Origin: a virus
IMG/VR virus record: IMGVR_UViG_3300049846_000568
Span: 81,809 to 145,808 of that record
Direction: 5' to 3' (one strand)
DNA length: 64,000 nucleotides
A program made the position numbers and the translations under genes. This document shows positions 2,053 through 56,938 of the stretch, in pieces. Under the pieces are notes generated by a model. The model made no database searches. It was given only the letters and a program-made list of their open reading frames with translations, and was not told the origin of the DNA. How positions within the stretch are numbered: the stretch's first letter is position 1; each line of letters starts with the position of its first letter.

Positions 2053-5000
2053 CTAAAACTCCCTATAATCGGGGCGTGCTTCTGTTAGGTCGTTCACTGA
2101 TGTGGGCGTTCTCAATGGTCCCAGTGCGCCGAGCTGATACTGGCGATATCTATCGACCGCATACCAATCAGATGGGTTAACTTCCCATGTTACTGGTGTC
2201 GCTGGCGCGAGTGGTGTAGCCTCATCGTAGAAGGTTGGCCAAGCGTAGGTACCGTTGGGGGCCAAATCTGGAATGGTCTCTGTTCTCTCACTGAACTGAA
2301 CGGCGTTGCGGGGTAGACCATTAAGGTTTTCGACTCCATGAATCGAATCGATATACTCAACCCAGAACACAACATCGCCAGTCAAGCTCCAGTCTGGTGT
2401 TGCCGGGTCATTCCAGCCACCCGGAGTGGCGCCATACCCATCAATACTGCCATAAGCCCTGACATTGTCTATAGTAATCCCATCATCGGTTATAGCAAAC
2501 CCGTGATCAGAAGCCGATACATTTCCTGCTTGCACCGTCCAAGAATCCACCAATACACCATTGATATACCACTCTATTGACGTGCCCTCAAACACTGCCC
2601 TAACAGTATCCCCGTCCGCATATGGGACTCCTGTATCGTTAAATACAACCGGACCGCCACCGTCTACCTCGAATACTTGCCAGTTGGCACCGTATCCACT
2701 AGCTACACCAATACCGAGATACTGATTGGAATTCAGGTAACGGACATACATGAGATCGCCGCTACCGCCTACAGTACCGCCAGAGAATGTCCAAGTTGAT
2801 TCTACCGAACCATCAGCCTCACAGGTGGCAAATGCCTGACCTCCACCCGATGCTGGGAAGGTCTCCACCTTGTTGTTGTACACCCTAAAAATTGAGGGAC
2901 CAAAACCACTCCACGGTCCACCAAGCTCGGCGTTGTGGTTCTGGAGATCTTTATTGTTGATGTCGGTGAAAGTATCAATCAAAACGGGAGAATGATACGA
3001 CATGTTTGGTGATGCTGTCTCACTCTCTAGGGCCACCATCCAATAACCTGGAGACCATGGCGTAGCGGCCATAAATGGTCCTACGTTGAAGACACCGTTT
3101 TCATCGGCCACAACTCGACCAGCCTCATTGTCCCAACCGGGAGACGCCGCGGCAGTTTCGTACTGGGTCGTCCAAACATCCTTCATATAGCGGCCCTTAC
3201 GCCAATAAACTACGGCATAAGGTACTGGTGTATGTGAATCATCTTCAACTCGACCATATAGCTCAACACTAGAATTGCCGTCAGCGGGAATCTGCTGAAC
3301 ATTTGGCACTGCTGCAAGTGTATAGGTTGGCGTCGCCTTTGGAGTAATGTGGTAGTTCACAGTTGCCGACGCATCACCCGATACTGTCACCATACCGGAG
3401 AGGTCCGTGTTTGTGCTGGCCGATAGAAGCTTAACCACAGCAAAACCGTCATCATTTGTTGTTACGGTTGTATAATCAAGCGTACCAAATGTGGTGCCGA
3501 GATTGAATGTGGCGTTGGGCTTTGGATTGCCATGAATATCTAACGACAGAAGCGTAACTATCAAGTAGTCTTGACCATCAGCGATAATGCTTGATGGGCT
3601 AATCCTTACCTCAACCTTATCCAAATCATACTCATTGTGGGAGATATAGATAAAGCCCTCATCAAGTACTGTATAGAAGGTGCTCAACGGAAGCTGGACC
3701 GGTGTAGCTGGATCGAACTTTGAGATCTCGTAGTTAATCGAAACCTCAGCGGGCAGTTCCTGATCAAACACCAATCGAGTCTTATTTTGGTTATCTACAT
3801 CCACATATTCGTGATCTGCGTAGAACGAGCGACTGACCTTGTAAGTCAACTCATATTCATGATCAACGTTTGTATTGTCTGATGTAGTAATTGCGTTAGT
3901 TTCCGTAAAGGTGGCTGCTGCTACTGTTTCGCCAGTATTAAGGTTGGTTACTGATATGTCGTAAATATCTTCATAAGCAGCATATAGGACCGTTGAACCT
4001 GTACCATAGACCGTTTGAGTGGTGTATTGGGTAAATCCTGGTGTCGCCTCGTCCCAAAAGGCGACCTGCCTATACTCCCTAGGTGTCAGCTCGTTTGTCT
4101 TAACGATGATTGGGGCACCCTGGCGAGCAACCCTTGAAAGGATCTTCGCGTCTGATGTAATTGTCGCTGTCTCTTCGGATGGCGTAGCATAGAAGTAGTA
4201 TTCGTCGTTACGATCGTAGAACCACCCAGAATGAACCTGCGGATACCACTGCTCTGGGATATTTGGGTTCAATCTTGCGCGAACCACAAATGGTCCATAC
4301 GAATATACGCCCCCATCTAGTGTTTCATCTACGGCGTTAGCGGGGTACGTAACTGCGGTGCCGTCATCGAATGATGGTTGCACTGTGTTAGAGTCGAGCC
4401 ATACAATTACCCGACCATTGTCAATTGACTCCACGCCAATCCAAGTTACAACGTAATCTTCCGTATTTGGAATGCCGAAGTCATCCCTACTAACCGTCAT
4501 CGTCTCTAGATTATAGTTTGAGTTCCCTGGTTGTGGAGCAATTCCATTACGCCATGGGCCATTCTCGTCAACGACACCACTAAAGGTGTTTAGGCAGTCA
4601 TACTCAAATAGCTCCCAGTACGGGCAGTTGGCTACGGGGTAAAGAGCACCAACTGGTGTGGCGTTTTCGTCAACAGCCTCAAACACAAACTCTGCAGTAT
4701 CTGCCGTAAATGTCTTTTGTCCGTTAGTCCAAGTCGAAGACCCATTACAACGAACATACTCTGCGGGGATGAACAGGCCTGAACCGTCTACATCTGTTGT
4801 GTAGCCACCATAGCTATTGTTATCGTCTGCGTCTGTTGTAACAATCTGAACCTTATAGGTACGGAGTCCGGTCTCGTATGGGTGCCAAATTATTGCTGGT
4901 ACAGGAATGGTAAAGCTTTGTAGTCCTTGGTCCGGAAGTGCCCCATTGATAGATACGGTATAGCGGTGCTTATCTGAGACCCACGTATCAGTGGAAGAAG

Positions 5001-7089
5001 CCGTTTCCTTGCTCTCCATTGAAATCGACACCGGGTGGAATGCAGAGATAAGGGGGGTAGAACCACCATCAATCGTAATTGGTGTGGCGCCGTCTGCGTA
5101 TTCTAGCAGGGATGTTGTATCGCCACTAAACCAAGCGGTGTAGGTATCGCTCGATGGCATATACGCATAGTATGGCGAGCCGCCGTTGTAGTGCCAGTTG
5201 CCATTATAGATCTTGCAGCTTGTGATGTCCGCCCAAGTAAAACTATAGCTTGAGCTTACCGTATGTTCGCCACCGGTAGAGTCAACCCAAATCATCCCAG
5301 GGACACTCTGTCCGTCCTGAGTCATGAAGAAGTGCTCAACTACGCTATTTGTAGTAGGTGTTGCGGACTGCTCACCGTTATTTGTTGTGAGCGAGAAAAT
5401 GTGACGAAGAGTTCCCTTGCCAGTAACAGCAAGCTCGATGGTAAAGTATGCGGTTGTATCCGGGTTCTCGTACTTAGTGTAAGGTACTTCACCCCAAATA
5501 TTAACGTCAAAGGTGATCTTACGAAACTCGTCGCGTGTCTGCTTCCTGCGACCACGCAGCTTTACGTGTCCCGTAAACTCTCTAGCACCTGTTACCTCAT
5601 CTGGGCGATAGACATATAGATCGTTACCGTCACCAATACCAGACTGCGTATCATCATCATCAAGTGGAGTAGCATCATATCTGCGCGCTAGTTCGGAATA
5701 ACCTTCGCCTTCCTGTCCACCAGCATCCCATGTAATGTTGCCCCAAACAAAGTTGCCCCACGTACTTGGATACTCTTTGGCCAAGGATTGAATTAAGTTG
5801 ATGAACTTCTGTGTCGGCACGCCGTCAAGGCCAACAAAGTCTGTATGATTCTCCAGGTCATCAATCTCATACACCTCAGGAGTTGCCCCTGGGAAGTAAG
5901 AATCCGGTGTGGAGTCTACAGGATCCTGGAAGTACTGCCACAAACTAAGCTCTCGCCTAAGGGCCAACTTGAACGCCTCTACACCAACACCTGGCTTGTT
6001 GATAAACACATCAAGAATACGACCCTTGAAGTATTCGTTTGTCTCAAGATGGAGTCTACTAAGGTCTACCTTTAGGCCAAACTCGTCAAACCAGTTCCAG
6101 ATATGGTGTGGCGATGCAGTATAGGCACTGTAGTTGATGAGGATTTCATCATAGTTCTTGTTGAGGAAGATGACGTCCTCAACATCGTCATGCCAAAAAC
6201 CATATTCGTCATCTGTAAGATCGTAGAAGTCTTCCAAATTAGAACAACGAGACAGTTCAACACCATCACCACTAATCTGGTAAACGGCATTTGGCACGTC
6301 TGCAATGATGTAGATCCAAGCCTTCTGGTTTACGTCTGCCGTGTTGATAAACTGCTGAGCGTAGACGTAAGCTATATCATCTCGAAGGTCATCTAACCAC
6401 TCGCCAGCAACTGCACTAAGCAGCATGCCGGATAGCGAGGTTGGGGTGGCCAGTTCAGGTGTTGCGGGATCTTCGTTCTCAATCTCGCGAACGGCCATCC
6501 ACTCAGGAAACTTGTTCTGAATATCACGAACAGACTTGTAGGAAGGCTTGCCCTGAAGCGGTTCGCCAATCCTGACCCTAATGATAAGTTCGACATCCGC
6601 TGACGAAAAGTCCTGATCACTACTAAGGCGAAGAACTACCCTACCATAACGATATGAGGATACCTCACCAATGTAATCAAGGTTTGTAACGCCAGCCTTA
6701 AATGCCCACTCATCGGGAAACTGCGCCGTAGCATCATCTATCGTATACAGGTCAAGAGCGCAGTTAACATCCGCTACACCGTTCAGTGTGGAAAAAGTAA
6801 TGTCATAGTCTACAACATCAATACGACCAGATTGGTCAATAAACCTGTCATTGTCGATGATACCAATCTCTGTCTCTGTGGCGGAGAGCTGGTCATAGCC
6901 GACATATGTGTTATTACCTAAGCTGTCAAGACCGTAATTAGACTTAATTGTAGAGTAGTTGCGGTAAGATGGCGTCGCCATCTCGGATGCGGCACTCTGG
7001 TTATCGTAGAAATCGATGATACCAGAAGTCCAAGTGTTATCACTTTTTGTAAAGTCTTCTGTAACAAGTCTTAGGTAATAGGTCTTCAA
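2053..7089 (-). CDS. Baseplate wedge (gpI/gp7-like) protein extended with Ig-like/invasin domains and a ConA-like lectin domain; carries 17 ATP motifs
   Basis: TTG start, 1678 aa. WFDEFGLKVDLSRLHLETNEYFKGRILD resembles the wedge 'LD..G..R..ETD..yr.RI' pattern. Big-1-like segments (IIADGQD...TTNDDGFAVV; IPADGNSS...ADENGVF). Lectin-like sandwich near 2440-2990. Downstream of baseplate J. Confidence 0.65.
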   Translation of the reverse strand: MKTYYLRLVTEDFTKSDNTWTSGIIDFYDNQSAASEMATPSYRNYSTIKSNYGLDSLGNNTYVGYDQLSATETEIGIIDNDRFIDQSGRIDVVDYDITFSTLNGVADVNCALDLYTIDDATAQFPDEWAFKAGVTNLDYIGEVSSYRYGRVVLRLSSDQDFSSADVELIIRVRIGEPLQGKPSYKSVRDIQNKFPEWMAVREIENEDPATPELATPTSLSGMLLSAVAGEWLDDLRDDIAYVYAQQFINTADVNQKAWIYIIADVPNAVYQISGDGVELSRCSNLEDFYDLTDDEYGFWHDDVEDVIFLNKNYDEILINYSAYTASPHHIWNWFDEFGLKVDLSRLHLETNEYFKGRILDVFINKPGVGVEAFKLALRRELSLWQYFQDPVDSTPDSYFPGATPEVYEIDDLENHTDFVGLDGVPTQKFINLIQSLAKEYPSTWGNFVWGNITWDAGGQEGEGYSELARRYDATPLDDDDTQSGIGDGNDLYVYRPDEVTGAREFTGHVKLRGRRKQTRDEFRKITFDVNIWGEVPYTKYENPDTTAYFTIELAVTGKGTLRHIFSLTTNNGEQSATPTTNSVVEHFFMTQDGQSVPGMIWVDSTGGEHTVSSSYSFTWADITSCKIYNGNWHYNGGSPYYAYMPSSDTYTAWFSGDTTSLLEYADGATPITIDGGSTPLISAFHPVSISMESKETASSTDTWVSDKHRYTVSINGALPDQGLQSFTIPVPAIIWHPYETGLRTYKVQIVTTDADDNNSYGGYTTDVDGSGLFIPAEYVRCNGSSTWTNGQKTFTADTAEFVFEAVDENATPVGALYPVANCPYWELFEYDCLNTFSGVVDENGPWRNGIAPQPGNSNYNLETMTVSRDDFGIPNTEDYVVTWIGVESIDNGRVIVWLDSNTVQPSFDDGTAVTYPANAVDETLDGGVYSYGPFVVRARLNPNIPEQWYPQVHSGWFYDRNDEYYFYATPSEETATITSDAKILSRVARQGAPIIVKTNELTPREYRQVAFWDEATPGFTQYTTQTVYGTGSTVLYAAYEDIYDISVTNLNTGETVAAATFTETNAITTSDNTNVDHEYELTYKVSRSFYADHEYVDVDNQNKTRLVFDQELPAEVSINYEISKFDPATPVQLPLSTFYTVLDEGFIYISHNEYDLDKVEVRISPSSIIADGQDYLIVTLLSLDIHGNPKPNATFNLGTTFGTLDYTTVTTNDDGFAVVKLLSASTNTDLSGMVTVSGDASATVNYHITPKATPTYTLAAVPNVQQIPADGNSSVELYGRVEDDSHTPVPYAVVYWRKGRYMKDVWTTQYETAAASPGWDNEAGRVVADENGVFNVGPFMAATPWSPGYWMVALESETASPNMSYHSPVLIDTFTDINNKDLQNHNAELGGPWSGFGPSIFRVYNNKVETFPASGGGQAFATCEADGSVESTWTFSGGTVGGSGDLMYVRYLNSNQYLGIGVASGYGANWQVFEVDGGGPVVFNDTGVPYADGDTVRAVFEGTSIEWYINGVLVDSWTVQAGNVSASDHGFAITDDGITIDNVRAYGSIDGYGATPGGWNDPATPDWSLTGDVVFWVEYIDSIHGVENLNGLPRNAVQFSERTETIPDLAPNGTYAWPTFYDEATPLAPATPVTWEVNPSDWYAVDRYRQYQLGALGPLRTPTSVNDLTEARPDYREF

Positions 7090-7099
7090 CTTCTACCCT

Positions 7100-8287
7100 T
7101 TAGTTGTCTAAGTAGATCGTGTGCTCCGAAGTTACTCCGTGAACTGGATGGACGAACTGCAAGTGCTGAGATGGTCTGCCCATAACGGCAAGGGTCTCTT
7201 GCGCATAAGTGTTGTAACTTTCGGGCGACCCACTGATCCTGAGGATTGAGCTACCAAGAGTCATCTTGCAGTTCTGGTGATAATGCCCCATGAATACGTC
7301 ACCGAAAGGTTCGGGCACTGCGCCATCCTTCCAACCCATTACCTTCTTGTAGTAGGTGTGGCTAGACGTAGGAGGAGGTAGCTGGTCTCCGTGTATTAGT
7401 AACGTGCCATACTCGCCAATGGTATCAACAGCGTAGAAATTGCTTTCGCCATGACCATCTGGGATATCAAAGGTTACTCTTGGCTCATTTGCAAACATGT
7501 GCTCCACAATCTTGTAGAGCAGTCTGTCCATATTTGTCTCAGAGTTGTACTCTCTCCTACTGCGGCCACCAATTGATCCATGGTTGCCAATTACGCCAAC
7601 AAAGTGAACGTGCTCAAACTCCTGTAGAAGTCTGAGAATCATGTCTCGGATAATCTCCGGACCATTTACACCCACCTGCTTATACAGGCTTGAATCGATT
7701 AGGTGTGACTGACCAGAGAAGATATCCTCACCCTCAACAATGTCACCAATAAACCAAAGGTGGATATCTCTTACGGGATGATCTGCCCTCTGAACATTTG
7801 TTACCTCAATAATTCTCTCTGTATACTTAGCAATTCTCTCGCGGCATACTTCTGAGTTGTAGGTAGGGGTAACCTTGCCTAGCTGCCAGTCAGCGCAAAC
7901 GGCTACTGCTGTTTCCTCGTCTCCACCAGAATAGCGAATCTTTGGCGGATCAACCTGAGGCGGGCGGATCTTCTCTACAGCCTCCTTCATAGCATCGTAC
8001 ACGGCGTCAACAGCGTGATGCTTGATGATCTTGTGCTTGTCTGCCAATCGGGCGAGACGAACTACCTCTTTACGAAGGAAGATGACTTCCTCTTCAAGAT
8101 CTAGGTCGTCTAGACTATATGCTGGGGCCACGCTTTTAGCGACAGCTTCAGCAACATCTTGAGTCCAAGCTCTACGCTTCGCTTCATTCTCCGCGTTTCG
8201 CTTACATCTAGGACCGCAATACTTTTGATTGTGTACTACCGGCTCAAAAGTGTTGCTGCAATCTGGTCCAGCGCATTCTCTATCCAT
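7100..8287 (-). CDS. Calcineurin-like metallophosphoesterase with N-terminal Cys4 zinc ribbon and coiled coil
   Basis: Motifs ADWQLG, GDIVEG, GNHG, HGD, GHYH in the canonical order; N-terminal CAGPDC...CGPRC. Confidence 0.85.
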   Translation of the reverse strand: MDRECAGPDCSNTFEPVVHNQKYCGPRCKRNAENEAKRRAWTQDVAEAVAKSVAPAYSLDDLDLEEEVIFLRKEVVRLARLADKHKIIKHHAVDAVYDAMKEAVEKIRPPQVDPPKIRYSGGDEETAVAVCADWQLGKVTPTYNSEVCRERIAKYTERIIEVTNVQRADHPVRDIHLWFIGDIVEGEDIFSGQSHLIDSSLYKQVGVNGPEIIRDMILRLLQEFEHVHFVGVIGNHGSIGGRSRREYNSETNMDRLLYKIVEHMFANEPRVTFDIPDGHGESNFYAVDTIGEYGTLLIHGDQLPPPTSSHTYYKKVMGWKDGAVPEPFGDVFMGHYHQNCKMTLGSSILRISGSPESYNTYAQETLAVMGRPSQHLQFVHPVHGVTSEHTIYLDN

Positions 8288-24600: not shown

Positions 24601-25481
24601 CTGCCTAAGAATATCTCCATCTGAAGGAGGTCGTCCTCCATCGCCTTTTGCATGTTTGCGATGACGCGAGGATTAAGAACACTCTTACCTTCAACCATCC
24701 TCTCTGCGACTTCTCTGGTAATGCCGTCCATTGACTGGCCAGTCATCATGCCATACATTTCTGCGTAGTTTGTAAAGACTAGGGCCTTAATCTTATCGCT
24801 ATTGTCCATAGCAAATTCATCAAGATTGCTGATGACTTTCTTTCTCTTTTGGAGCTTTACAAAAGCCCGATCCTTAGCCATTTGTGCGGCCCTTACCGCT
24901 TCAGCTGGGGTTTTAGCTCCAGCTTCAGCCCTTGCTTCTATGGCATTGACACCGGAAGTCAAATCAAACAAACCCAAACGACGAGCTTCTGCCTCAATAT
25001 CTTCGCTGAAAAGCTGCTCTCTTTTTCCTGTAGCCAGGTTAATCTTGTATACCTGGGTAAGTACGGTTGTTTCTTTATCGCCAGTAAGAATACCGATTTG
25101 CTTTCCACCATTAGCGATGAGTTTTGCCAATGCATCTATATCAATTTTGCTGGAGTCAAGCGAAGTCCTCACAACTTCAATACGATGACCCTTATAGGAG
25201 CCACTGGCAAAGCCGCGAGCTATGCTCTGTTCGCGTGTATACTTCCAGAAACTAGATCCAGGAAGAGACTCAACAAAATCAGATGTAATAACATGCTGAG
25301 TTTTTACACCCAGCTTACTACGAGCAGTTTCTAATTCGTACATGTCCGTATAAAATGTCCCCATAAATTCGACACCCCAACGGCCGCCACGACGCTCCAC
25401 CTTATATCCACCCTGAGATTGCGCTTCCTTAAGTAAGGCGGCGTGAACCGGGTTTGCTCTGATTTCATCGAAAGTTGCCAT
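21660..25481 (-). CDS. Large internal virion protein; possible divergent two-barrel (YonO/RdRP-like) RNA polymerase
   Basis: 1273 aa; the ORF itself is clear. Function inferred from ordered motifs KLQKR, EGKSVLNP, FRMGG, IKG, DIIAPAASFAK, HGGADLDD, KRSP. Hydrophobic helix near the C-terminus. Confidence 0.45.
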   Translation of the reverse strand: MATFDEIRANPVHAALLKEAQSQGGYKVERRGGRWGVEFMGTFYTDMYELETARSKLGVKTQHVITSDFVESLPGSSFWKYTREQSIARGFASGSYKGHRIEVVRTSLDSSKIDIDALAKLIANGGKQIGILTGDKETTVLTQVYKINLATGKREQLFSEDIEAEARRLGLFDLTSGVNAIEARAEAGAKTPAEAVRAAQMAKDRAFVKLQKRKKVISNLDEFAMDNSDKIKALVFTNYAEMYGMMTGQSMDGITREVAERMVEGKSVLNPRVIANMQKAMEDDLLQMEIFLGRTDITEAARRQTERDLRKLDEAIGRLKSLRKNGGVLEGFRMGGFDWEWAQRAGLDEETFEMIRNGIIKGDVHVIGEKQWKATASHMAGILGNTVDEVLGADIIAPAASFAKEASIRGVSFHITHMKAGVPIDQQLLAVAGDEVFDAAHGFGAFTQYNLEAFKGSMKTLLETGELPKAYKAHMRRILDVDSNDPTMIRSIIGSESIPELRKQQERARRILTSLEMGINPANDEAMLRDVAGGMIDFLRKSTVGSKADDLFGLIPYSIQGHATTDFFTRLIGGRGVAKGSFGISQEYGTIYNALDWANGLAATHGGADLDDLMASLLYRDGDNLVSLTKRSPLGVGELSLSTLDDKSYWDVADLLTSGDEIVAQNQGLRAALEAATFVGDDGRPVLGFAKASRTSALNLSVIGSILREHAPEMTPALKQRLQTIARLGDHPAQVPFAIQVLNSETYSDVLQRARALMPYLPEPQDIDVTEILAKYPNLSEEMQASIAYTARQGGHTLERYSLVREMSDQMAILLENLGAPVPKGILTPFEMEPIIDLIAQGQAKGYEALLPKDVELATQALERGMVRAALIVRQTMGINILDPGRLTGDGRNSASIANMERHLKAMQGEFSLAGVGGIDELLMSPEDPRSINAQSKLAQERMLFEAQKYVDEAAAGMEKSDPFRRTFFDDQAIEDADMMKQAFDDAMAMANAERTGILPNHMQKELFGKTVVDVEDDLFKRSFARDEMRRAFVSTFEDGKMTRRALHAMGAFMQRYGDEFAASDLGNTAAYWKARAYFELRTPSPSGKRSSLRRLAGQKITSDDILGDISPGFVTEGMQSRGARAAAYDVAKDVAAGIRGRGPQGRTISDLVTKMWDVPSFRKGSIAAAGLIGASLLYRKTKDRSVDDFQGPPLLPGGSFYEDMPSPDMPQQDPHSVVNNGGGVIYKVNARGGFSSDRFRAAAETITGTRASGSVYSALPRKRQDPREAFGR

Positions 25482-28400
25482 TAGTAAACACCTGCATTAA
25501 CTTCTAGACGCGTTCCAGGGTAGGGCGTCCTAATCATTTGCACATCACCATGAATGCCATTTCCATGCATTAGGTCTCTCAATCTACTTTTTACATCCCC
25601 GCCTCTCGAAACGGCGTTGAAGGATGGGTAGGCGGGATTAACTAGGTTCGCTTCACGTACCTGCTGTGGATAGTACCCCATTTGGGACATATCCAACCCC
25701 ATACTCTGGCCCATCTTCACCTTAACCTGATCCATGTTTGTGTTCGGGTGCCACAGCGATGAACCAGGACCTGGTAGTTCGTGGTGTTCGAAGTACTCAT
25801 CTAGATCGGGCCTTGCCTCAACTTGACGACCCCACACAGCTTCAAGTGCCCGACGCTCCAGCCTTCCTGCCGTAGAAAGGATCCTGTCCCTCTCCTGCTC
25901 TGGAGCTTGCGCCATTGCCATAAAATGCTCTCTCTTGCGCTTTGGAATGGCCTGGGCTATCTGGTCCACTGGAGCATTGTAGACGTCTACCCCATATAGG
26001 GTGCTTGAAGCGCGGCGCTTATATTCTGACGCTGCCTGCATGTCACCCATAGTAGAAGCCATATTGGCGAGGTGTGTGTTCTTTACGTAGCTCAATATGT
26101 CGGTATACTCCTCAAGAGCTACTTCCTTGCGCCTGAACTCCGGCATGTACCGGCGACCAGTTACGGCTTCCTGAATCTTGCCAATCATACTGGAGGCAAA
26201 ACCTAAGCCTGCGCCAGCAACGGCGCCAATAACCTTGCCTTGAGCCGTCTTACCAAACAGGGTACCGGTACCACCAAGGACAAGGGCTGCCTGGAACGGG
26301 TCACGCTGAGTGGACTTATAGAGCATCGGCTCAAAGAAGTCCCTAATCGGATTTTGCCACTGGGGGAAAGTGGCACCATAGACGTTGAAGCGCTCCCAAT
26401 CCTCTACCGCGGTTCTATTTGGCATGAACTTGGTATTAAACGGGGTGTCGAAGTGTTGAAATGCCTCCCAACCTCGCTCAATAGCCTGAACCGTATTGGT
26501 TGGAATGGTGTACTTATGTTGGTAGGGCGTGAACTCGTGTTCTTGTGCCTTTGCTGCAACCTGGTCACGAGTAAGCTGAACCTGCTCTGCGGCCGATCCC
26601 TCAAGATTCCCAACGACCCTATCGATGCGCCTATACTCTTGAGACCATGGAGCTACATCGCCCAAGATCTTGTGGATATCAGCTATACCATACTTGCCGT
26701 ATCGGTCAGAATGAAGTTGATGTAGTCTTTCGTAACCAGTACCAGGAAGACGCATTTCGCCTTCAGAGATCTTAGTGTAAGGATCGCCGGTGCTGAAGTC
26801 TAGGTAATATCCAGAGTTGCTGTTTGGTAGCCAGGGATACTGCTGACCCATCTGGTTGCGAATCGGGTTAATGAACTCTGTACCGCTTCTCTCACGAGGA
26901 ATGAATCGGCGGATGATTTCAGAGAACTCGATGTTGGCGAAGTTACCTTCAAGAGGGCTAGGCACGTCGCCAAGACCGCCAAGACCAAGGCTCCAGAATC
27001 CGCGAGTAGACCCGTAAGCCCTGCCAGCGGAGTCGAGAACTGGGCGGGCGGTTGTGAGATCCTGATTACCAAAGCCCAAGGACTCTCGAACAGCACCGAA
27101 CGCGAAGCCGTAGATACCGGCCATTTCCTGCAGCTCATAACCCAGCTGACGTGACTGATATCCAAGGTTTCTCGTTGATGTTGGAGGTGCGCCGCCGATA
27201 ACTCTTGGCGACATTGCCCCAGGGGCCTGCACTGGGCCATAGGCACCAGAGTATGCTGCTGCTGAATATCCCGCGTTTGTGCTGCTAATAGAGCCGAAGC
27301 TAATGTTACGGCCTGTTGCCATAGGTGTTCGACCTGCGGCTGACATACCTGCGTTAGCGCGCGAAATGGCCATCCCCGCACCAGCAGCACTCACGGATCC
27401 AGACGCTGGCAGGAAGATTCCGCTCTTACCACTAGTGGCGCCTACCGTAGTCATACCGCCAGCGGCTCCACCGATAACAGACATAGCCCCTGGACTACCA
27501 GGAGGAGCAAAGTATGCGCCCTGTTCACCTGTTGGCAGGTATTGCGAGAGCCCACCTTCAAGCTCCTGCTTGTGCATCTTGATTTGAGGTTTTAGAACGC
27601 GACCTACTGTGGCGTTCAATGCGGAGCGGAGTGGACCCCAAGGACCGGTGAAGTATTCGCCCGATGCCGGATATGGCCTATCGGCATAGTGCTCACGCTC
27701 AAACCTATATGGGTCTAGAGGCCTTAATGGTGAGAAGTCATAACCAAATGCTAGACGCTCAAGAGGTGAACCATATGCCTGGTCTGTATAAGCATAACCA
27801 GACTTTAGTCGGCGGTACCAACTAGGCCTGAAATACTCAATGCGGCCACCCTTCCAAGGTGTGTTACCAAGTGGCCACCAACGGCCAGACCTAATTGGTA
27901 CTTCACCCTTGAAGATTTCATCGCGTTTCTGCTCAAACGTCTGACCACCAGGCATAACTCCGGCCAAAGCAGCCTGACCATATGCGACGCCAGTTGCTAG
28001 GCCACCAAGGAAGTAGGGGGAGTAAACTCTGTTCCCCTCTGCGTCCTTGGGGTTCGCAAAGCCACCGACAGTTCTGTCAAGCGCTACTGCTGTAGTACCG
28101 GCTGCGACCAGCGGTAGAATACGCTGACCAACAAGACCACGCGCATACATGTCCATTGGACTCTTGTACTTTGTTGGGTCCAGCGACATGCCGACAAAGC
28201 CAAAGCCCTTATTGAGACGATCTACAAGGTGGCCACTAAGAATTGAGGAGCCAGAGAAAGCCTGTCTATTACTCCAGGTGTTCATGCCCAGAACGCTAGC
28301 CACTGCCCCCTTTGGGTTACGAGCATACGCGGTGGCAAATGTCGGGACTAGCGCAATGTTGCCACTAAATGGATCGTATTCCTGACCATGATATTCATAT

Positions 28401-42963: not shown

Positions 42964-42996
42964 ATACAGTTTCCCATTAGACGATATAACGTCTAC

Positions 42997-47730: not shown

Positions 47731-48519
47731 CTACGTAGTTAAGTTCTTAGAGATAACAATGCGGTACTTGTAGTTCTCGCTAAAGTACTCATAACCTGAT
47801 GTATAGTATACCACTGTCTCAGCGGGCGTGGCGGCCTCTGGGTAGTGGTCAACAGAAGGTAGGTCTACATATACGTAGATCCCATTCTGACTTAGACGTG
47901 CATCTATGTCTTCCCAGCGGGCTGGAGACCTTGAGATCTCCTTCTTCTGCACTTTGATGTTGGTCGAATTTACACTTGTTACGGCTGGTGCTTGACTAAA
48001 GGTTAGCCTGATGCGCCCGTAATGGTAATCCGCAGGTAGATAGTAGTCGCCATTGGGTGGATCGGCCTCGACAAACCTAAATGTCACGGTGTCTAGCGGA
48101 ATCGCAAACGTGTCGAACACAGTAGATACGATAGAATAATCTACAATGCTGACTTCCTCTGGTGCCGGAGGCAGACCATCAAGGGCCGTATTGACGGTAT
48201 CGCCAGTAGTGAACTGTACGACCCAATCATTAAGCGTTTGGCCCAGGATGTTCTTAAGCCCCGAAATCGTCAAAGTGTAATCAGTAGCCGGGGTTAGGAC
48301 ATCGTTGGCCCAATGCAGTGTCAGTGTTCTGCTAACAGAATTGTAATCCTCATTAAGGTCGATCGTATCAAACGGGTCAGTAATGGAGACCGGAGTTGCC
48401 TCATCTGTCGCAACTAAGAACTTGTCATTAGTAATCGAAGATGCTCTTAGCGACACGTTGAACTGAATCGTTACCTCATGAGCGGTTATGTCGATTGCCT
48501 CAACTAGATCTACAGCCAC
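47731..48519 (-). CDS. Ig-like (Big-5-type) head-associated protein
   Basis: GTG start with AGGAG RBS; LTPATDYTLTISGLKNILGQTL...FTTG; second Ig-like domain; two ATP motifs. Confidence 0.7.
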   Translation of the reverse strand: MAVDLVEAIDITAHEVTIQFNVSLRASSITNDKFLVATDEATPVSITDPFDTIDLNEDYNSVSRTLTLHWANDVLTPATDYTLTISGLKNILGQTLNDWVVQFTTGDTVNTALDGLPPAPEEVSIVDYSIVSTVFDTFAIPLDTVTFRFVEADPPNGDYYLPADYHYGRIRLTFSQAPAVTSVNSTNIKVQKKEISRSPARWEDIDARLSQNGIYVYVDLPSVDHYPEAATPAETVVYYTSGYEYFSENYKYRIVISKNLTT

Positions 48520-48611: not shown

Positions 48612-49664
48612 TTACGCTACAGTTCTGTGAAGCTCCACATCGTAGCTGCGTGCAAGATCCACGTTCTTTGCAACTGTGATGCCCTCGCCGTCACCCACCA
48701 TTACGATGTCGTAACGCTCCTTCATCTTCATTGCGCGGATGTCACGAGTCTGGTCTGTCCACTCATCTGTGGATAGGTCATCCTTAACAAGAAGGACGCC
48801 AACCTCGTTGCGGTCAATCAGGAACACATCAGACTTAGCTGCTGTTGCACCACTGCGTGCTGTGAAGCTGACGAATGGTGAAACAATCACGTTTAGGCCT
48901 GCTGGAGCTGTTGCGTTAGCAACACCTTCCTTAGAGCCAACACCCATACCCCAACGACCCGAAGGTACTGAATCGTTGCCGTACATAACTGCATTCTTTG
49001 CAAACAGCGCCCACATAAGTGGATGAATGATGAAGTCAGTAGGGGTGTGATTCTCTGCCATTAGAACTGCAGCCATATCAATGACGTCGTCCCATGTAAG
49101 GGTATCATTCTGGGCACCGGTTGAACCTAGGCCCGTTGTGGAATCGTAGGCGCCATCATCGTTATCGAAAACGATTGTTGCGGCGTCTGCGAAACGGGAT
49201 AGAGCTAGCTGCTCCTTATAGCGTGCCATAGCACGACCTGCAGCGCGAACGTGAAGGCCAACAATGTCCCAAAGGGAGTCAGAGATAACCTCTTCTGTGA
49301 AGACAACCTTCACACCCTTCTTGCTGACCTTACCCTCGACCTGCTTCGCGAATGCTAGAGCCTGCTCTGGGTATTCCTGTCCCTCTGGGATCTCTGCAGC
49401 CTGGATTGCGTTGACGGCTGGGAACTCGAGTGAACGACCCTTGCCAAGGCGCACGACAGAAAGAAGAGGAGTCACTAGAAGCTGTGGCTCAGCTGCTTCC
49501 TTCAGGGTGCGTGAAATCACCTTGGGGAACAGGATCGGAGCATCAGGAGAGGCAAAAGCCTCCTTGATGGTTACTCGATGCTCGTCATCGATGTTGCCGT
49601 CTTCTGCAAGGACTGACTCCCAAGTGGAGACATTCTGTAGAAGTTCTTCGATGGTCTTACTCAT
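48612..49664 (-). CDS. Major capsid protein (HK97 fold)
   Basis: AAEIPEGQEYPE, KKGVKVVFTEEVISDS, PTDFIIHP, GLNVIVSPFV, MKERYD; GGAGG RBS. Confidence 0.92.
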   Translation of the reverse strand: MSKTIEELLQNVSTWESVLAEDGNIDDEHRVTIKEAFASPDAPILFPKVISRTLKEAAEPQLLVTPLLSVVRLGKGRSLEFPAVNAIQAAEIPEGQEYPEQALAFAKQVEGKVSKKGVKVVFTEEVISDSLWDIVGLHVRAAGRAMARYKEQLALSRFADAATIVFDNDDGAYDSTTGLGSTGAQNDTLTWDDVIDMAAVLMAENHTPTDFIIHPLMWALFAKNAVMYGNDSVPSGRWGMGVGSKEGVANATAPAGLNVIVSPFVSFTARSGATAAKSDVFLIDRNEVGVLLVKDDLSTDEWTDQTRDIRAMKMKERYDIVMVGDGEGITVAKNVDLARSYDVELHRTVA

Positions 49665-49702: not shown

Positions 49703-50470
49703 TTACAGCGTTAGATTAACACGAACAGCGCCAACCACATTCGCTGTATCTAGGTTGGCCCGGATACCAAGCTTGCCCGAGTATGGACCGCTCTTAGTTA
49801 GTTCGTAAACTTCCTTGAGAGCACCTGGATCCGATGGCAGCTGCATATAGGAAAGTAGGCCGTCATCGAAGTTTGAAGCAAATGACTCAACCTCAATAAC
49901 CTTACCTACGATCAGGTATGGGTAGTTGCTTGCCTCGGTGTTGTTGCCAAGTGTAGGAGCCTTGACCGGACGACCCATGTGGTCGGACGTTACAAGATCG
50001 CCTGGGCTTAGGGTGTCGTTAACACCTGCAACCAGTGGCCACTCAACATAACCGTGCGTAATCCAGCCTGCGCCCTGAGAAGTACCCTTATCGAATGGAC
50101 GATATAGGTCATACTGTGCGCAGCCGATCGGCACTGAACGTGCAGGGACTGTCACGGTATCTGTGTCGCCGCCAACGTTAGTTGGGGTTGCACCCGTCTC
50201 TAGGTCAACGGTGTCTGCGTCGCCCCATGCCTGGGAGGAAGTTGTACCGTTTGCTGGAACAATGCGGGAATCACCATTTGCAATCTCAACGACCGAAAGG
50301 ATGGTGCCCTTAGGAATAACAATCTCGAAACGGTCATCCTCAATGTCTGTGTAGAGAGTTGGTAGACCCTCGTGAGGAAGTAGGTATGCCGAAGGTGCAA
50401 TACCCTCAGATACTACGAAACGACCGGAACCGTTCTTGCCATAAACCTTACGAAACTTTGCTGTACTCAT
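49703..50470 (-). CDS. Capsid decoration / head stabilising protein
   Basis: Between scaffold and MCP; IPKGTILS, PIGCAQ, LSPGDLVTSDHMGRPV, IVGKVI beta-tulip-like pattern. Confidence 0.7.
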   Translation of the reverse strand: MSTAKFRKVYGKNGSGRFVVSEGIAPSAYLLPHEGLPTLYTDIEDDRFEIVIPKGTILSVVEIANGDSRIVPANGTTSSQAWGDADTVDLETGATPTNVGGDTDTVTVPARSVPIGCAQYDLYRPFDKGTSQGAGWITHGYVEWPLVAGVNDTLSPGDLVTSDHMGRPVKAPTLGNNTEASNYPYLIVGKVIEVESFASNFDDGLLSYMQLPSDPGALKEVYELTKSGPYSGKLGIRANLDTANVVGAVRVNLTL

Positions 50471-50495: not shown

Positions 50496-51290
50496 TTACA
50501 GTGCCCTGCGACCCATTAGAGTGTCGGTTAGGAGATCCTCGAAAGCCTTAGTAGGATCCTTCGCCTCTTCCTCAACCTCTGCATCTACGGTGTCGACATT
50601 TTCCTCGCCCTCAACAGCGGCAATCTTGGGCTCTACGACGCCAGTAGGCATCTCGCGCTCAGTTGCTACCATCTTAGGCATTGCTGCTAGATCGCGAAGT
50701 GAATCAGCCAGCGAAGATGCGGTGCGACCTGCATGCTCCTCAATTGCCTCTGCACGACGAGATGACTCCTCAAGACCAGCTGTGATCTTTGCATCAACTA
50801 CTCGCTCTGCGAGCGTGCGATGTAGGGCCTTCTTTAGTCTAGCATTCTCTTCCTCAAGAGCCGTGACACGTGACTGAAGCTCGTCAACATCGTGCTCAGC
50901 CTCGACAGCATTTGTCTCGGTGAGGTCTGTATCGTCAGCCTGCTCACTTGCCTGGTCTCCCTCAGCTACCGCTTCGCCCTCTTCCTCGACAGCCTCTTCG
51001 ACTGTCTCGGACTCTTCGGACTCACGGGTGTCTGATGCGTCATCTGAATCTTCGGCCTCAGCAGTTGTATCCTGAGCTTGCTCAGCCTCTTCGGTTTCTG
51101 ACTGGTCATCTGACTCTGTAGTGGTATCTGCGTCAGTTTCTTCGGCCTCACTCTGCTCAGTAGCTTCTGCCGAATCATCTGAGGCTTCCTCAGTCTCCAC
51201 AGCAGCATTCAGGTCATCGCTTAGACCCTCTGTAATGGCGAGGATATCCTCGTCCTGCTCTGCTGTATCGACATGCTCTTCGTTAGCCAT
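50496..51290 (-). CDS. Probable nested in-frame scaffolding protein
   Basis: GAGGAG 9 nt before an internal ATG (MANEEHV...) at the start of the acidic region. Confidence 0.6.
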   Translation of the reverse strand: MANEEHVDTAEQDEDILAITEGLSDDLNAAVETEEASDDSAEATEQSEAEETDADTTTESDDQSETEEAEQAQDTTAEAEDSDDASDTRESEESETVEEAVEEEGEAVAEGDQASEQADDTDLTETNAVEAEHDVDELQSRVTALEEENARLKKALHRTLAERVVDAKITAGLEESSRRAEAIEEHAGRTASSLADSLRDLAAMPKMVATEREMPTGVVEPKIAAVEGEENVDTVDAEVEEEAKDPTKAFEDLLTDTLMGRRAL

Positions 51291-52163
51291 TGATTCTTTC
51301 TCCTCAGAACTGGTTTCGATACCACCAACATTATCTGTAGTATCGCCTATATAAGCAATTGCACTTTCTTCATTCTCGATATTATTAGACATTCTTGCTT
51401 GAATGAAAGCGCCTTTGATCTCATGGTAAAGGGGGGATGCGTCCTTCTTGCGCATTTCGCCAAGAATGTCAACTCCACCCTCAACGCCTTCACGGCATTC
51501 CACAATGGACTCACTACTCAAGTCTAGCACAAAGAACTTGGCTGTATGATTCCAACCATCTGATTCTTCTGCCTTGTTGATTGCGCGAACGCCGGAATGT
51601 GCGTCGGCGGGTACATTCACAAACGAATACTCTACGAATGTGATGTTGCGCATTTCGAGTGTAGCTAGCTTGCCCTTGTAGACGCGACCCCTCTGGTGCG
51701 GGCACGGCATGCCGCGCAGGCCCTCCTTGGGGTGGGCCCAGTCAGTGCCACAAACAGAACAAATGGCCTCATCGGTCTTACCACCAATGGAGCCAGTAAT
51801 ATACCTACGATCAAGAACCTTTTGAATTGCTGTAGGGTCGACAATAGCCGCCTGCAGTCTTACGTATGGGGTGCCATCCTCTTCCTGATCCATCTTTGCG
51901 CCGATGACGCGACCAACTGGTTCGCTCATCTTGTCGTGGTTCATGATGATTGGCTTCTGGTATGGGGTATACCAGGTATGAAGAGCGTTTGCTAACTCTG
52001 CTGAACTGTACTGTGTGAAGTTCTGAGTCACACCCTCATGAATGGCGGCGATCTCTACAATCAGCCCATGCTTATCCTTGTATGCGCTTTCAGAGAAGCT
52101 TGAAAGGTCATACTCTACATTTGGTAGCGGAACGGTGAATGTCTCGTGAAATTCAAAAGCCAT
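50496..52163 (-). CDS. Prohead protease fused to acidic scaffolding domain
   Basis: IIMNHD...PVGRV, GSIG, CSVCG...CPH, EYSFVNVPAD; Glu/Asp-rich C-half with a coiled coil. Confidence 0.85.
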   Translation of the reverse strand: MAFEFHETFTVPLPNVEYDLSSFSESAYKDKHGLIVEIAAIHEGVTQNFTQYSSAELANALHTWYTPYQKPIIMNHDKMSEPVGRVIGAKMDQEEDGTPYVRLQAAIVDPTAIQKVLDRRYITGSIGGKTDEAICSVCGTDWAHPKEGLRGMPCPHQRGRVYKGKLATLEMRNITFVEYSFVNVPADAHSGVRAINKAEESDGWNHTAKFFVLDLSSESIVECREGVEGGVDILGEMRKKDASPLYHEIKGAFIQARMSNNIENEESAIAYIGDTTDNVGGIETSSEEKESMANEEHVDTAEQDEDILAITEGLSDDLNAAVETEEASDDSAEATEQSEAEETDADTTTESDDQSETEEAEQAQDTTAEAEDSDDASDTRESEESETVEEAVEEEGEAVAEGDQASEQADDTDLTETNAVEAEHDVDELQSRVTALEEENARLKKALHRTLAERVVDAKITAGLEESSRRAEAIEEHAGRTASSLADSLRDLAAMPKMVATEREMPTGVVEPKIAAVEGEENVDTVDAEVEEEAKDPTKAFEDLLTDTLMGRRAL

Positions 52164-52236: not shown

Positions 52237-52998
52237 CTATGAAAAAGCTGGCTGTCGTGGATCGCCACGACCAATAAACTCATTCAACATCCACCTGTGC
52301 ATAATGTGCGACGAATAAATGTTTGATGCGCTATACATCTTGTAGCCGTGTCTGGTTACTTCCGCCGACCAACCAAGATCTTCACCCTGTCTGTGCCATC
52401 GATACCTAACATCACGATAGACTTCTGGCGCCATCATGACAGCAGCCATTGAAATCTCTACTTCAAAAACCTCACCAATTGGATACTCTTCCACTTTACG
52501 CTTAGCTTTACCGCCAGGATAATCCGCCCAATTCATAATGTTCGGAAATCTATCACCTTCCGGCGTCATGTAGCATAAAGGGGCTGCGGTGCAGCCTGAA
52601 TCTGTAAGATTGTATAGTTCCTGTAAAGTATTCTGGTTGGTTAGAACGATATCGGAATCCAAAGAGAAGTACCTTTCTGGAGCGTAATTGATTGCACGCT
52701 CTAGAAGGTTATTACGGAAGTTAACCATTCTGTAATAGTCTGATCGTGCCCATTGACGCTTGTCTTCTTGATGCGTCTTGTGTGTCTCGTCTGCTCTAAT
52801 GATTCCGTCAAACACCTCTACTTCTGGGTGTCGTGAATGCCATTCCCACAACATCTCGTGGGTTTCCTCGTCTGGAGTGCCAAGCTCAAAGATAAACCCT
52901 AAATCCGACAATGGAATCGTTTGGTTCTCTATACTCTCGAACCAATAGGGTAGAATCCAATCACGCTTATATACTGGACAGCCGATAAGAATCTTCAT
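52237..52998 (-). CDS. GT-A fold glycosyltransferase (third, distinct from the A/B pair)
   Basis: KILIGCPV, RNNLL, FSLDSDI (DxD), GEDLGW, terminal His motif. Confidence 0.85.
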   Translation of the reverse strand: MKILIGCPVYKRDWILPYWFESIENQTIPLSDLGFIFELGTPDEETHEMLWEWHSRHPEVEVFDGIIRADETHKTHQEDKRQWARSDYYRMVNFRNNLLERAINYAPERYFSLDSDIVLTNQNTLQELYNLTDSGCTAAPLCYMTPEGDRFPNIMNWADYPGGKAKRKVEEYPIGEVFEVEISMAAVMMAPEVYRDVRYRWHRQGEDLGWSAEVTRHGYKMYSASNIYSSHIMHRWMLNEFIGRGDPRQPAFS

Positions 52999-53204: not shown

Positions 53205-53442
53205 CTGCGGAATCCGCGGTGGCCGCTGCCTTCTTTGTGGCCGGTCGCTGCTTAGATTCGCTATCTGCCAAACGCGCCTCTAGGCTCTCAACGTACTCAA
53301 TCAAATTGTCAATCAATTCAACTGCGTACTCAAAAGCTAGACGAGTCTGGTTATTGCGAACAGCGGTAGCAAAACCCTTGCGGACATCAAGCTCTAGCTT
53401 GAAATTGCCCTGTCGCTGTTCCTTTAACTTTGGTTCAAACAT
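53194..53442 (-). CDS. Hypothetical coiled-coil protein
   Basis: 82 aa; TAATG coupling to the portal gene. Confidence 0.6.
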   Translation of the reverse strand: MFEPKLKEQRQGNFKLELDVRKGFATAVRNNQTRLAFEYAVELIDNLIEYVESLEARLADSESKQRPATKKAAATADSADDQ

Positions 53443-55091
53443 TAAACATCGTCCTCTCTATAGTCTTCCCCAATCAATTCTACCATCTCGGTAATCCAAT
53501 CGTCATCTGAACGACGAATATCTGGGGATGTTCTTGCGCCGTGCTGATTTGCTGGACGCACCACATTACCTGAAGCCTTACGTAGATTCTTCAGGTTTGG
53601 TCTACCACCCGTTGATGGCTGTTGTGCCGGGGCCGGTGTTGTATCAACTGTCTTTGGCGGCTTCTGGCCACCCGTTGCCGTCTTCTCGCCCGGAACGATC
53701 TGGTTTGGCTGCATGCGTACCTGCATGGCCATCATCGTGTCGTGCTCTGGAAGCTGAGGTGCACGACCAATTGCCTGACGACCCTCGCCAATTGTCTCAA
53801 GGTTGGAAGTAACCTTCTGTAGGGTGTGGTTTTCCTTCTTGACCTGAGTGTCGACATCGATCTCGTTGAACTTCATAATGCATCGATCTGAGACCCCACT
53901 AAGCTTAGGGTTGGCCATGGGATCGAAGCCGCCCTCACGGAGCAGCTCATCAAAGATGAACATACGTACACAATCAGCGAAATAGCGCTGATACTCCTTG
54001 ATCCTGTCGTAAAGGGCAGTATCAAGACGATCGGTCATGTCGCGGTTTGCGCCAGCGAAATCAACCATACCAAGATGATGAGGGAATACCCCAAGACCAA
54101 CAGCAGTACGAGTCTTGATGTGGTTCAAGAAACCGCTGATCTCTAGGACCTTGCCCTCAGAGCCGATGATCTCGACATTGTGACGGAAAGGCAGCACGAG
54201 ACCGCCCTCTGTTCTCAGAGACTCAAGCTCAAGAACCGCTTCATCAATCTCATCTGGCTCAGCAGGATGCTCCTCGGTACCGATGGTGTACTTGTAAAGT
54301 GGGAACAGTTCCCTGTGGATTAAGTTAAGATAATCTTCCTCGACCTGACGGAGTGCAATAAGGTCATCAAGAGCCGCTGTCATGAATGGTGTACCGAAGG
54401 CTCTACCAGGCTTACGATCCCTATACATGTGAATAATCTCGCTTGCATTCCAAGTAGGATCTACAACAGAGGTGTTACCAGTGTTGGCCTGCAAGAAACC
54501 GAGGTTAGAAGAAATTCGCTGACGGTACCACCTTGGACGGTTGTACTTGTCGCGCAGAATCTGTACGCTCTCGGTTGGGATCAAGTAATAGCCGATGATT
54601 GGACCCTTTGGTTGATCCGATTCGACATCACCAGGAAAGGTCTCGGCAATCTGGTCAGCACGGGACTTGACGACAAAGGCGTTGTGATAGCGGAAGAGCT
54701 GATCTGCCGTATCAATTAGGAAGTCTTGGAATGGGCGACCCATTGCAACTTCCATATAGTCAATACGCTGATATAGGTAATCTACAGCTTCCTGATTCTC
54801 GCCAACAATCGTCCAGCCTTCCTTCCAGAAAAGCTCACGATACTTAGCAAAAGCATTCTTGGCATAGGAGTCTGTGTCGATGGCCTGAGTAATGCGGTCA
54901 AAGTCGTAAGGAGGATCTTCAAAGTTGGCCCTCTTGCTTAGGTCTGTAGGAAGACCTTCATAGCCGAGCGCGATAGCCCTAATCTTAAAGGCCTTAGTTA
55001 AAGCCTTCTTGTCCTGAGTATCGAGGACTTGAGCCTTCTTCTCGACAATTGGTTGTTCTTTGAATGAAGGGAAGTAATCGCGAATGCCCAT
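53442..55091 (-). CDS. Portal protein
   Basis: 549 aa upstream of protease/MCP; EIIHMYRDRKPGRAFGTP, LGVFPHHLG, EGRQAIG portal-like motifs. Confidence 0.85.
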   Translation of the reverse strand: MGIRDYFPSFKEQPIVEKKAQVLDTQDKKALTKAFKIRAIALGYEGLPTDLSKRANFEDPPYDFDRITQAIDTDSYAKNAFAKYRELFWKEGWTIVGENQEAVDYLYQRIDYMEVAMGRPFQDFLIDTADQLFRYHNAFVVKSRADQIAETFPGDVESDQPKGPIIGYYLIPTESVQILRDKYNRPRWYRQRISSNLGFLQANTGNTSVVDPTWNASEIIHMYRDRKPGRAFGTPFMTAALDDLIALRQVEEDYLNLIHRELFPLYKYTIGTEEHPAEPDEIDEAVLELESLRTEGGLVLPFRHNVEIIGSEGKVLEISGFLNHIKTRTAVGLGVFPHHLGMVDFAGANRDMTDRLDTALYDRIKEYQRYFADCVRMFIFDELLREGGFDPMANPKLSGVSDRCIMKFNEIDVDTQVKKENHTLQKVTSNLETIGEGRQAIGRAPQLPEHDTMMAMQVRMQPNQIVPGEKTATGGQKPPKTVDTTPAPAQQPSTGGRPNLKNLRKASGNVVRPANQHGARTSPDIRRSDDDWITEMVELIGEDYREDDV

Positions 55092-56859: not shown

Positions 56860-56892
56860 ATACAATTTCCCATTAGACAATATGACGTCTAC

Positions 56893-56901: not shown

Positions 56902-56938
56902 TCGAAAACAAATCAAATGCTATACAGCATGGAAGAAA

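Follow-up and report, generated by a model that had tools for sequence, protein, structure and literature searches.

Why should a single virion protein carry the same three residues seventeen times over? The question is raised by a 64,000-nucleotide stretch of the viral record IMGVR_UViG_3300049846_000568 in the IMG/VR database (positions 81,809 to 145,808; hereafter, the window), where the gene for an outer baseplate/fibre protein of 1678 amino acids (aa), here denoted P0001, encodes 17 copies of the tripeptide Ala-Thr-Pro (ATP in the one-letter code; hereafter also the tag). The distribution of this tripeptide across related phages and its co-variation with glycosyltransferase (GT) genes lead us to propose that Ala-Thr-Pro is a sequon for O-glycosylation of Thr by a phage-encoded system, a reading to which we assign a probability of roughly 0.65. 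The gene and its tripeptides are located as follows, in window coordinates.

2053..7089, minus strand: P0001 gene, 1678-aa outer baseplate/fibre protein, TTG start, 17 ATP tripeptides
6970-6978, minus strand: ATP at residue 38
6457-6465, minus strand: ATP at residue 209
6442-6450, minus strand: ATP at residue 214
5878-5886, minus strand: ATP at residue 402
5665-5673, minus strand: ATP at residue 473
5356-5364, minus strand: ATP at residue 576
5080-5088, minus strand: ATP at residue 668
4654-4662, minus strand: ATP at residue 810
4180-4188, minus strand: ATP at residue 968
4039-4047, minus strand: ATP at residue 1015
3700-3708, minus strand: ATP at residue 1128
3328-3336, minus strand: ATP at residue 1252
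3058-3066, minus strand: ATP at residue 1342
2422-2430, minus strand: ATP at residue 1554
2395-2403, minus strand: ATP at residue 1563
2212-2220, minus strand: ATP at residue 1624
2194-2202, minus strand: ATP at residue 1630

The excess of the tripeptide over compositional expectation is extreme. Under a model of independent, identically distributed residues, P0001 is expected to contain 0.58 ATP (Poisson P 1.6e-19), the maximum count in 20,000 shuffles of the protein was 5, and the runner-up among its over-represented tripeptides has P ~5e-4. The codons are varied (GCT, GCG, GCA and GCC for Ala; ACA, ACG, ACT and ACC for Thr; CCA, CCT and CCG for Pro), and the DNA word GCNACNCC occurs in the gene 17 times in frame, once in each of the other frames and twice antisense; this frame specificity indicates that the peptide, rather than the DNA, is under selection. 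These results bear out the initial annotation, which had counted 17 ATP, two STP and three ASP by hand (all 17 of its five-residue contexts match, and the STP and ASP counts are the same), had estimated fewer than one ATP by chance, as the expectation of 0.58 confirms, and had concluded from the differing codons that no DNA repeat is involved, in agreement with the in-frame bias of the word. The other 39 open reading frames (ORFs) of the window contain 6 ATP against ~5.6 expected and the rest of the sampled IMG/VR record (145.8 kb, 69% complete) 16 against 10.7, that is, numbers near expectation, and therefore the excess within this genome is confined to P0001. That it is a compositional, DNA-level or chance artefact can be considered a negligible prospect, given that none of the shuffles reached 6, that the DNA word is frame-specific and that the excess is kept at 27% identity.

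This persistence is apparent from comparison of the 87 homologues of P0001 that were found (27-87% identity), of which 85 have 7-21 ATP against ~0.5 expected; similarly, across 80 IMG/VR loci, every correctly picked homologue has 4-19 ATP and is enriched. In an alignment of 49 sequences, 716 ATP are spread over 122 columns, with a broad range of conservation: Thr 403 (in 48 of 49 sequences) and Thr 1129 (47 of 49) are near-invariant, others are present in half of the sequences, and 71 columns have ATP in just one or two, i.e., are lineage-specific. Some of the tripeptides are even located inside lineage-specific insertions. Where ATP is replaced at an aligned site, the commonest substitute is STP, with ASP next; the counts of XTP at tag sites are 1221 for Ala, 224 for Ser and 55 for Thr, and the ATP to ASP ratio of ~9:1 shows that Thr is favoured over Ser. 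Furthermore, Lys and Arg are almost never found between positions -5 and +6 around ATP, and the favoured residues are Phe or Tyr at -3, Asp, Glu or Gln at -2 and Gly, Pro or Asp at -1. In these alignments, the ATP sites behave like a sequon, combining conserved core sites with turnover.

Is the tag a peculiarity of one protein? To obtain counts at the level of the clade, ORFs of 160 related loci were grouped by homology to the proteins of this genome. Three head proteins are relevant here, of which the capsid protein also served as the anchor of the synteny survey.

47731..48519, minus strand: immunoglobulin (Ig)-like (Big_5) head protein, 262 aa, 2 ATP (48391-48399 and 47824-47832), second tagged family
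49703..50470, minus strand: head decoration protein, 255 aa, 1 ATP (50183-50191), third tagged family
48612..49664, minus strand: major capsid protein (MCP), 350 aa, 0 ATP in this genome

In this sample, the baseplate family has 338 ATP against 8.2 expected. The Ig-like family has 127 against 3.0 in 47 IMG/VR orthologues (42x), with all members tagged, and the 120 nearest Ig-like homologues have 334 against 7.0 (48x), one to three each, at three conserved positions. The decoration family follows with 52 against 5.4 (9.6x; at least one in 96% of 54 orthologues), and the capsid family is weakly tagged (23 against 6.2; at least one in 40% of 57 orthologues). The wedge, tape-measure, portal and GT families together have ~11 ATP against ~30 expected, a descriptive figure only, the sequences being related. 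In this genome alone, the counts for the Ig-like (2), decoration (1) and capsid (0) proteins are non-significant, so the excess in these proteins is one at the level of the clade. Single ATP tripeptides are also present in the window in the sheath protein (36563-36571), at the extreme C-terminus of a 295-aa tail protein (37156-37164) and in a 129-aa neck protein (39994-40002), families with 1-6 orthologues in the sampled loci, too few to call tagging.

Which enzyme could read such a tag? A candidate is encoded between the portal gene and a head-morphogenesis gene, in a slot bounded as follows.

53442..55091, minus strand: portal protein, 549 aa, upstream boundary of the GT slot
52237..52998, minus strand: portal-adjacent GT-A fold glycosyltransferase, 253 aa, candidate reader or initiating enzyme of the tag
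50496..52163, minus strand: head-morphogenesis protein, 555 aa, downstream boundary of the GT slot

The motifs SLDSD (the DxD motif, D114-S-D116), QGEDLGW and PHIM are invariant in 12 orthologues of the 253-aa protein (44-57% identity); its profile matches the N-terminal GT-A domain of human COLGALT1 in the PDB (E 2e-8, residues 22-133), and its structure matches in the Atlas are clusters of the Glyco_tranf_2_4 (PF13704), GT25 and Anp1 types (template modelling (TM) scores 0.8-0.9). The motifs, the profile and the structure matches together support its assignment as a DxD GT-A enzyme. The gene is present in all 7 relatives that are at least 90% complete, and it occupies the slot between the portal and 555-aa genes at each of the 49 distinct IMG/VR loci that include both flanking genes, and at 9 further loci; all 58 are tag-bearing. 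In cultured phages, no homologue was found except for an archaeal-virus GT at 28% identity. Additional GT genes are located elsewhere in the genome.

G000:53417-60178, outside the window: glycan cluster encoding a GT17 protein, three GT2 proteins, two methyltransferases and an RmlD-like reductase
G000:58233-58931, outside the window: core GT2 gene, 232-aa protein
G000:59342-60178, outside the window: core GT2 gene, 278-aa protein

The GT17 protein, the three GT2 proteins and the RmlD-like reductase of the glycan cluster all score above the Pfam cut-offs. Within the cluster, only the 232-aa and 278-aa GT2 are single-copy core proteins (42-58% identity in 5 of 5 complete relatives); the GT17 protein and a 293-aa GT2, with orthologues in only 2 and in 1-2 of the 5 relatives, respectively, were discarded as core enzymes. 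The initial annotation had instead assigned the tag to enzymes of GT/methyltransferase cassettes in the window (42244-42963 and 56140-56916), an assignment that did not survive: neither protein has a Pfam match, and the one at 42244-42963 was rejected as the reader, having no homologue in four relatives that are 97-100% complete and have 8-17 baseplate ATP. The latter protein belongs to PHROG 1574 (function unassigned there), and its best PDB match, to the GT-A enzyme STIV A197, is weak (E 0.14). The three-gene cassette is found twice in the window (41718-47265 and 55584-61945) and consists of genes for a giant fibre, a PHROG 1574 protein (239 or 258 aa) and a methyltransferase; the fibres (1419 and 1668 aa) are rich in Ser, Thr and Asn, and Thr-Pro pairs are scarce in them (one each). 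Given the lack of homologues of the 239-aa protein in the same four relatives, the cassette appears to be specific to this lineage.

The evidence that ties the tag to the GT genes comes from phages in which both are missing. The acceptor motif co-varies with the GT genes across genomes: 58 GT-bearing loci are tagged, and two GT-less phages, both partial, are untagged. The first of these, phage L108/L082, was retrieved as the Logan contigs of P0062, a baseplate homologue with a single ATP (loci L082, L101-L109 and L241-L243); its two main contigs overlap by 11,810 bp at 100% identity, and the partial genome amounts to ~88 kb plus further stretches. The synteny of the window is kept (identity of 74% for the capsid, 67% for the decoration and 52% for the portal protein). 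The exact GT slot is filled by an HNH homing-endonuclease gene (282 aa) and an 81-aa ORF (L108:3326-4174), which suggests that the GT was replaced by a mobile element, and no GT homologue was found anywhere in the sampled DNA of this phage. Moreover, the interval that corresponds to the glycan cluster is 1.66 kb long and encodes only a Dam-type methyltransferase, both core GT2 genes being missing from the syntenic slot; in the near, ATP-rich P0048 phage, the same slot has three GT2 genes and a methyltransferase. The tag is reduced to one ATP in P0062 and to none in the Ig-like, decoration and capsid proteins, and over all 18.8 thousand residues from this phage 3 ATP were counted where 4.3 are expected. 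The relatives among which P0062 branches have 12-19 ATP, with 14 in its sister P0057 (52.6% identity). In P0062 itself, the Thr is replaced at four conserved sites with the flanks kept (PELATPTSL to PELAEPTSL, FDPATPV to LDPAKPI, RYDATPL to RYDASPL and DEATP to DEVEP). We failed to find IMG/VR relatives of P0062 or of the Ig-like protein of L108; for the L108 MCP, the nearest IMG/VR relative is 79% identical. The same phage encodes several more homing endonucleases (Endonuclease_7, LAGLIDADG_1 and HNH_3) and an intein (Pfam Intein_splicing and LAGLIDADG_3; L103:1-5671 and L104:2725-9990) in a 2421-aa homologue of the 2209-aa protein of the window (25481-32110).

The second GT-less phage, that of P0287, one of the ATP-less representatives of the Ig-like family, is known from loci L325 and L326 (partial, ~29 kb). 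The gene order in L325 is portal, two small ORFs, a 128-nucleotide gap, the 555-aa homologue, decoration, capsid and Ig-like protein; no ATP is present in any of these last three proteins, of which the capsid protein is 73% identical to that of the window, and a search of six-frame translations of L325 and L326 with the GT profile returned nothing at E up to 10. The IMG/VR locus L327, by comparison, is GT-bearing at the slot, and its decoration protein contains 2 ATP. In the portal tree, L327 is the sister of L108 (support 0.998, 84% portal identity) and L325 (63%) lies outside this pair; in a tree of MCP plus portal, L108 and L325 group together within the GT-bearing diversity. Because the sister of L108 retains both GT and tag and L325 falls outside the pair, GT and tag changed jointly at least twice: there were either two losses or a single loss followed by a joint regain. 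The unlike contents of the slot, an HNH gene in L108 and nothing in L325, fit separate events. A comparison of phages with and without the GT genes had been put forward in the initial annotation, and its outcome is that the tag is absent from the Ig-like, decoration and capsid proteins of both GT-less phages.

Where the tags are located in the folded protein bears on a different explanation, namely, that ATP is a purely structural, unmodified element of loops and linkers, such as a turn made rigid by Pro at domain borders. AlphaFold models of the two halves of P0001, built from the 49-sequence alignments (mean predicted local distance difference test score, pLDDT, 79.7 and 71.2; monomers, not the assembled virion), depict a chain of beta-rich domains with low-confidence linkers between them. 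In these models, all 17 ATP Thr fall outside helices and strands, as do 58% of the other Thr (P 1e-4), and 6 of the 17 are in linkers with pLDDT below 50, which make up 11% of the protein outside an insertion described below (P 0.009). The predicted monomers are thus far consistent with the expectation of the initial annotation that the sites would be in loops or linkers and not buried. The same placement, in loops and between domains at about one site per 100 residues, is compatible with a structural role; for Pro the contrast is weak (coil accounts for 80% of the remaining Pro as well, P 0.024), several sites are near-invariant, and site 402 is kept even in the protein of the GT-less phage. 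A structural element would not, however, vanish at once from three to four unrelated families while their folds and flanks persist, would not be re-invented in lineage-specific insertions and would not track a glycosyltransferase gene; besides, the distant homologue in phage 0305phi8-36 has no ATP. We consider this explanation improbable.

Loss of the tag together with the GT genes might also be coincidental or secondary if ATP were a recognition or docking motif of some other system of the clade core: a ubiquitin-like (Ubl) conjugation operon, a chaperone, an assembly partner, or phosphorylation or hydroxylation at Thr/Pro. A ubiquitin-like operon (E2/JAB/ZnF/E1/Ubl) indeed exists outside the window (G000:5710-10037, locus L083), and its E1-like gene (L083:8975-9778) has counterparts in all 5 complete relatives (46-62% identity), one of which has two copies; on this account, the operon is a core feature of this jumbo-phage clade. 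The E1-like gene is, therefore, as core as the GT, the acidic context of the tag, free of Lys and Arg, could suit a docking groove, and the GT-less phages have been seen as partial genomes only. Ubl conjugation, however, targets Lys, which is nearly excluded around ATP. With respect to phosphorylation at Thr-Pro, which the initial annotation had kept as an alternative, no Pkinase (PF00069) match was detected in the 145.8-kb, 69% complete record, so that this option has lost ground at least as far as a kinase of the phage is concerned, a host kinase being possible; for hydroxylation, no match to 2OG-FeII_Oxy_3 (PF13640), the sole hydroxylase family tried, was detected in the record. Furthermore, any such system has to accommodate the absence of three GT genes at two loci in the L108/L082 phage and the parallel distribution of tag and GT in a pair of sister phages. 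We deem this family of explanations unlikely, if somewhat less so than the structural one.

Phage-encoded glycosylation of the tag also has to be weighed against the possibility that a host enzyme reads ATP and that the role of the phage GTs is limited to extension or alteration of the glycan. A preference for Thr or Ser near Ala and Pro is known from some bacterial O-glycosylation systems. Against such a division of labour, the tag goes when the phage GTs are lost, which is unexpected if the host initiates, and the targets are products of cytoplasmic assembly, whereas general O-glycosylation in bacteria is mostly extracytoplasmic. Among these alternatives with some biological content, we regard it as the one least likely to hold.

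Several observations count against the sequon interpretation itself. The case is built on comparison of sequences from uncultured phages. The Pfam Anp1 match of the 253-aa GT is below the gathering score (19.4 against 28.8 bits), and the GT is a clade-core gene, such that its presence alone is uninformative. Outside the target proteins, this genome shows no depletion of ATP (13, where 10.4 are expected); were all exposed ATP modified, one might anticipate some avoidance there. The most conserved site (402) is precisely the sole ATP kept in the GT-less P0062, which leaves room for a structural role of some sites. For the GT-less phages only partial contigs are available, and a relocated GT is possible; the sampling of L325 is limited to the GT slot and the head proteins. 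There are only two co-variation events, both within one sub-clade. Finally, 20 of the 90 representatives of Ig-like clusters at 50% identity have no ATP and are scattered over the tree, two such lineages having been checked. An alignment of the ATP-less Ig-like representatives retrieved only tag-bearing IMG/VR phages, and a metagenome scan yielded one 3.8-kb contig that ends short of the GT slot. The longest Logan contig is 80,887 bp both for P0235, an ATP-less Ig-like protein, and for P0023, a baseplate homologue with 8 ATP; the two may belong to one phage, which would then represent an intermediate or mixed state of the tag.

On balance, the acceptor motif for Thr O-glycosylation that the initial annotation had proposed stands as the best-supported reading, by virtue of comparative genomics, i.e., the co-variation of the tag with the GT-A gene and the two core GT2 genes. 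The mechanism that we envisage is as follows. Soluble phage GT-A enzymes, the portal-adjacent 253-aa protein and the two core GT2, would act in the infected cell and transfer a sugar to the hydroxyl of Thr in ATP loops that are exposed on a small set of outer virion proteins, namely, P0001, the Ig-like and decoration proteins of the head and, in some cases, the capsid protein. The glycan would then be elaborated by enzymes that vary among lineages (in this phage, the GT17 protein, the further GT2, the two methyltransferases and the RmlD-like reductase), such that the virion surface would end up coated with glycan. We infer Thr to be the modified residue, and the initiating enzyme, the sugar and the purpose of the coat are to be taken in the same sense; the RmlD-like gene and the methyltransferases, which are not core, hint at a methylated 6-deoxy-sugar in this phage. 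The most specific version of the proposal is that, in a large clade of aquatic jumbo phages with hundreds of metagenomic relatives, a small, soluble GT-A enzyme of the phage (~250 aa) recognizes ATP in the bacterial cytoplasm as a minimal, genetically encoded sequon for O-glycosylation, such that chosen virion surfaces receive a lineage-variable coat of methylated deoxy-sugar; for this version, we would give about even odds.

How does the proposed system compare with those already known? To our knowledge, phage-encoded glycosylation of virions has been shown only for some mycobacteriophages, no tripeptide sequon is known for it, and no defined tripeptide sequon has been reported for virus-encoded O-glycosylation; our literature search likewise found no described ATP sequon in phages. 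The virion proteins of mycobacteriophages are reportedly O-glycosylated by phage-encoded glycosyltransferases, as Freeman et al. are said to have described in Cell Host Microbe in 2023. As proposed here, the GTs of those phages decorate their own virion proteins in the host cytoplasm, with glycans coating the outer surfaces; in contrast to the present case, the glycans are at the C-termini of capsid and tail-tube subunits, the chemistry is proven and the enzymes are different, whereas here a defined tag, A-T-P, is scattered over loops of three kinds of virion protein (baseplate, Ig-like and decoration), and the phages are aquatic jumbo phages that have not been cultured. The capsid of the chlorovirus PBCV-1 is glycosylated by virus-encoded cytoplasmic GTs at non-canonical sequons. 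That machinery, like the one suggested here, is independent of the host and reads its own short context on capsid proteins, but it is N-linked on Asn and belongs to a eukaryotic virus with unrelated proteins. The general O-glycosylation system of Bacteroidota uses the sequon D-(S/T)-(A/I/L/V/M/T); there, too, a minimal tripeptide marks Ser or Thr on many unrelated proteins, but the motif is another one, and the system is periplasmic, lipid-linked and host-encoded. With respect to the enzyme, COLGALT1/GLT25D1 (PDB 9u7j, 9evj and 8zgc), the nearest solved relative of the 253-aa GT, belongs to a GT that modifies protein side chains; the match covers only the N-terminal half, the likeness of fold is silent on the acceptor, and COLGALT1 acts on hydroxylysine of collagen whereas Lys is nearly excluded around ATP. 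Core GTs have also been described in another lineage of aquatic jumbo phages, in the 'moraphage' paper (PMC12619734).

As for the baseplate gene, it lies downstream of the baseplate wedge genes (phrog_6 and phrog_43), with its TTG start 10 bases past the preceding gene. Residues 226-385 of P0001 are matched by PHROG 21059 (virion structural protein), and a single Ig domain at residues 1158-1247 is recognized by Pfam Big_1 (36.4 against a gathering score of 34.9) and by Invasin_D3 (35.0 against 33). Cultured relatives are limited to short or partial homologues from phages like Bacillus phage 0305phi8-36 and from a Moorella jumbo phage: ORF162 of 0305phi8-36 and related virion proteins of jumbo Bacillus and Moorella phages are distantly homologous to residues ~190-516 (23-31% identity). 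ORF162, a low-copy virion protein by mass spectrometry according to the record annotation, is much shorter than P0001 (372 aa) and, as noted above, free of ATP. A megablast search of the P0001 gene against cultured phages gave no match, and a Foldseek search of the N-terminal model against the PDB nothing usable, this being a multi-domain model with all TM scores below 0.1. An insertion of ~190 aa (residues ~1355-1552, window 2422-3066) is found only in the P0001 of this phage, most relatives being ~1500 aa long; the AlphaFold model is poor in this region because the alignment is without depth there. The ATP at residue 1342 and those at 1554 and 1563 do flank the insertion, as the initial annotation had it; its description of the inserted domain as lectin-like comes down to weak Atlas leads to ConA-like and CBM-type families (scores 0.90-0.92), and Pfam gave no match to the insertion. 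Beside the baseplate gene, a 395-aa protein (7100-8287) matches PHROG 284, labelled 'exonuclease', at E 1e-43. Its gene is conserved beside those of the wedge and the baseplate (57% identity in the GT-less phage) and the protein has no Pfam match, and the PHROG 284 label may be wrong for this family.

The present analysis singles out a small candidate enzyme and, in the 262-aa Ig-like head protein, a putative natural substrate, a combination that can be tested in Escherichia coli without phage culture. If the proposed sequon is real, it would constitute a compact, portable pair of tag and enzyme for cytoplasmic O-glycosylation of recombinant proteins, with potential use in glyco-engineering. 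From a code of three residues, one could then tell which surfaces of an uncultured phage bear a sugar coat. Furthermore, glycan coats would be widespread among aquatic jumbo phages, which bears on their adsorption, stability and interactions with the environment.

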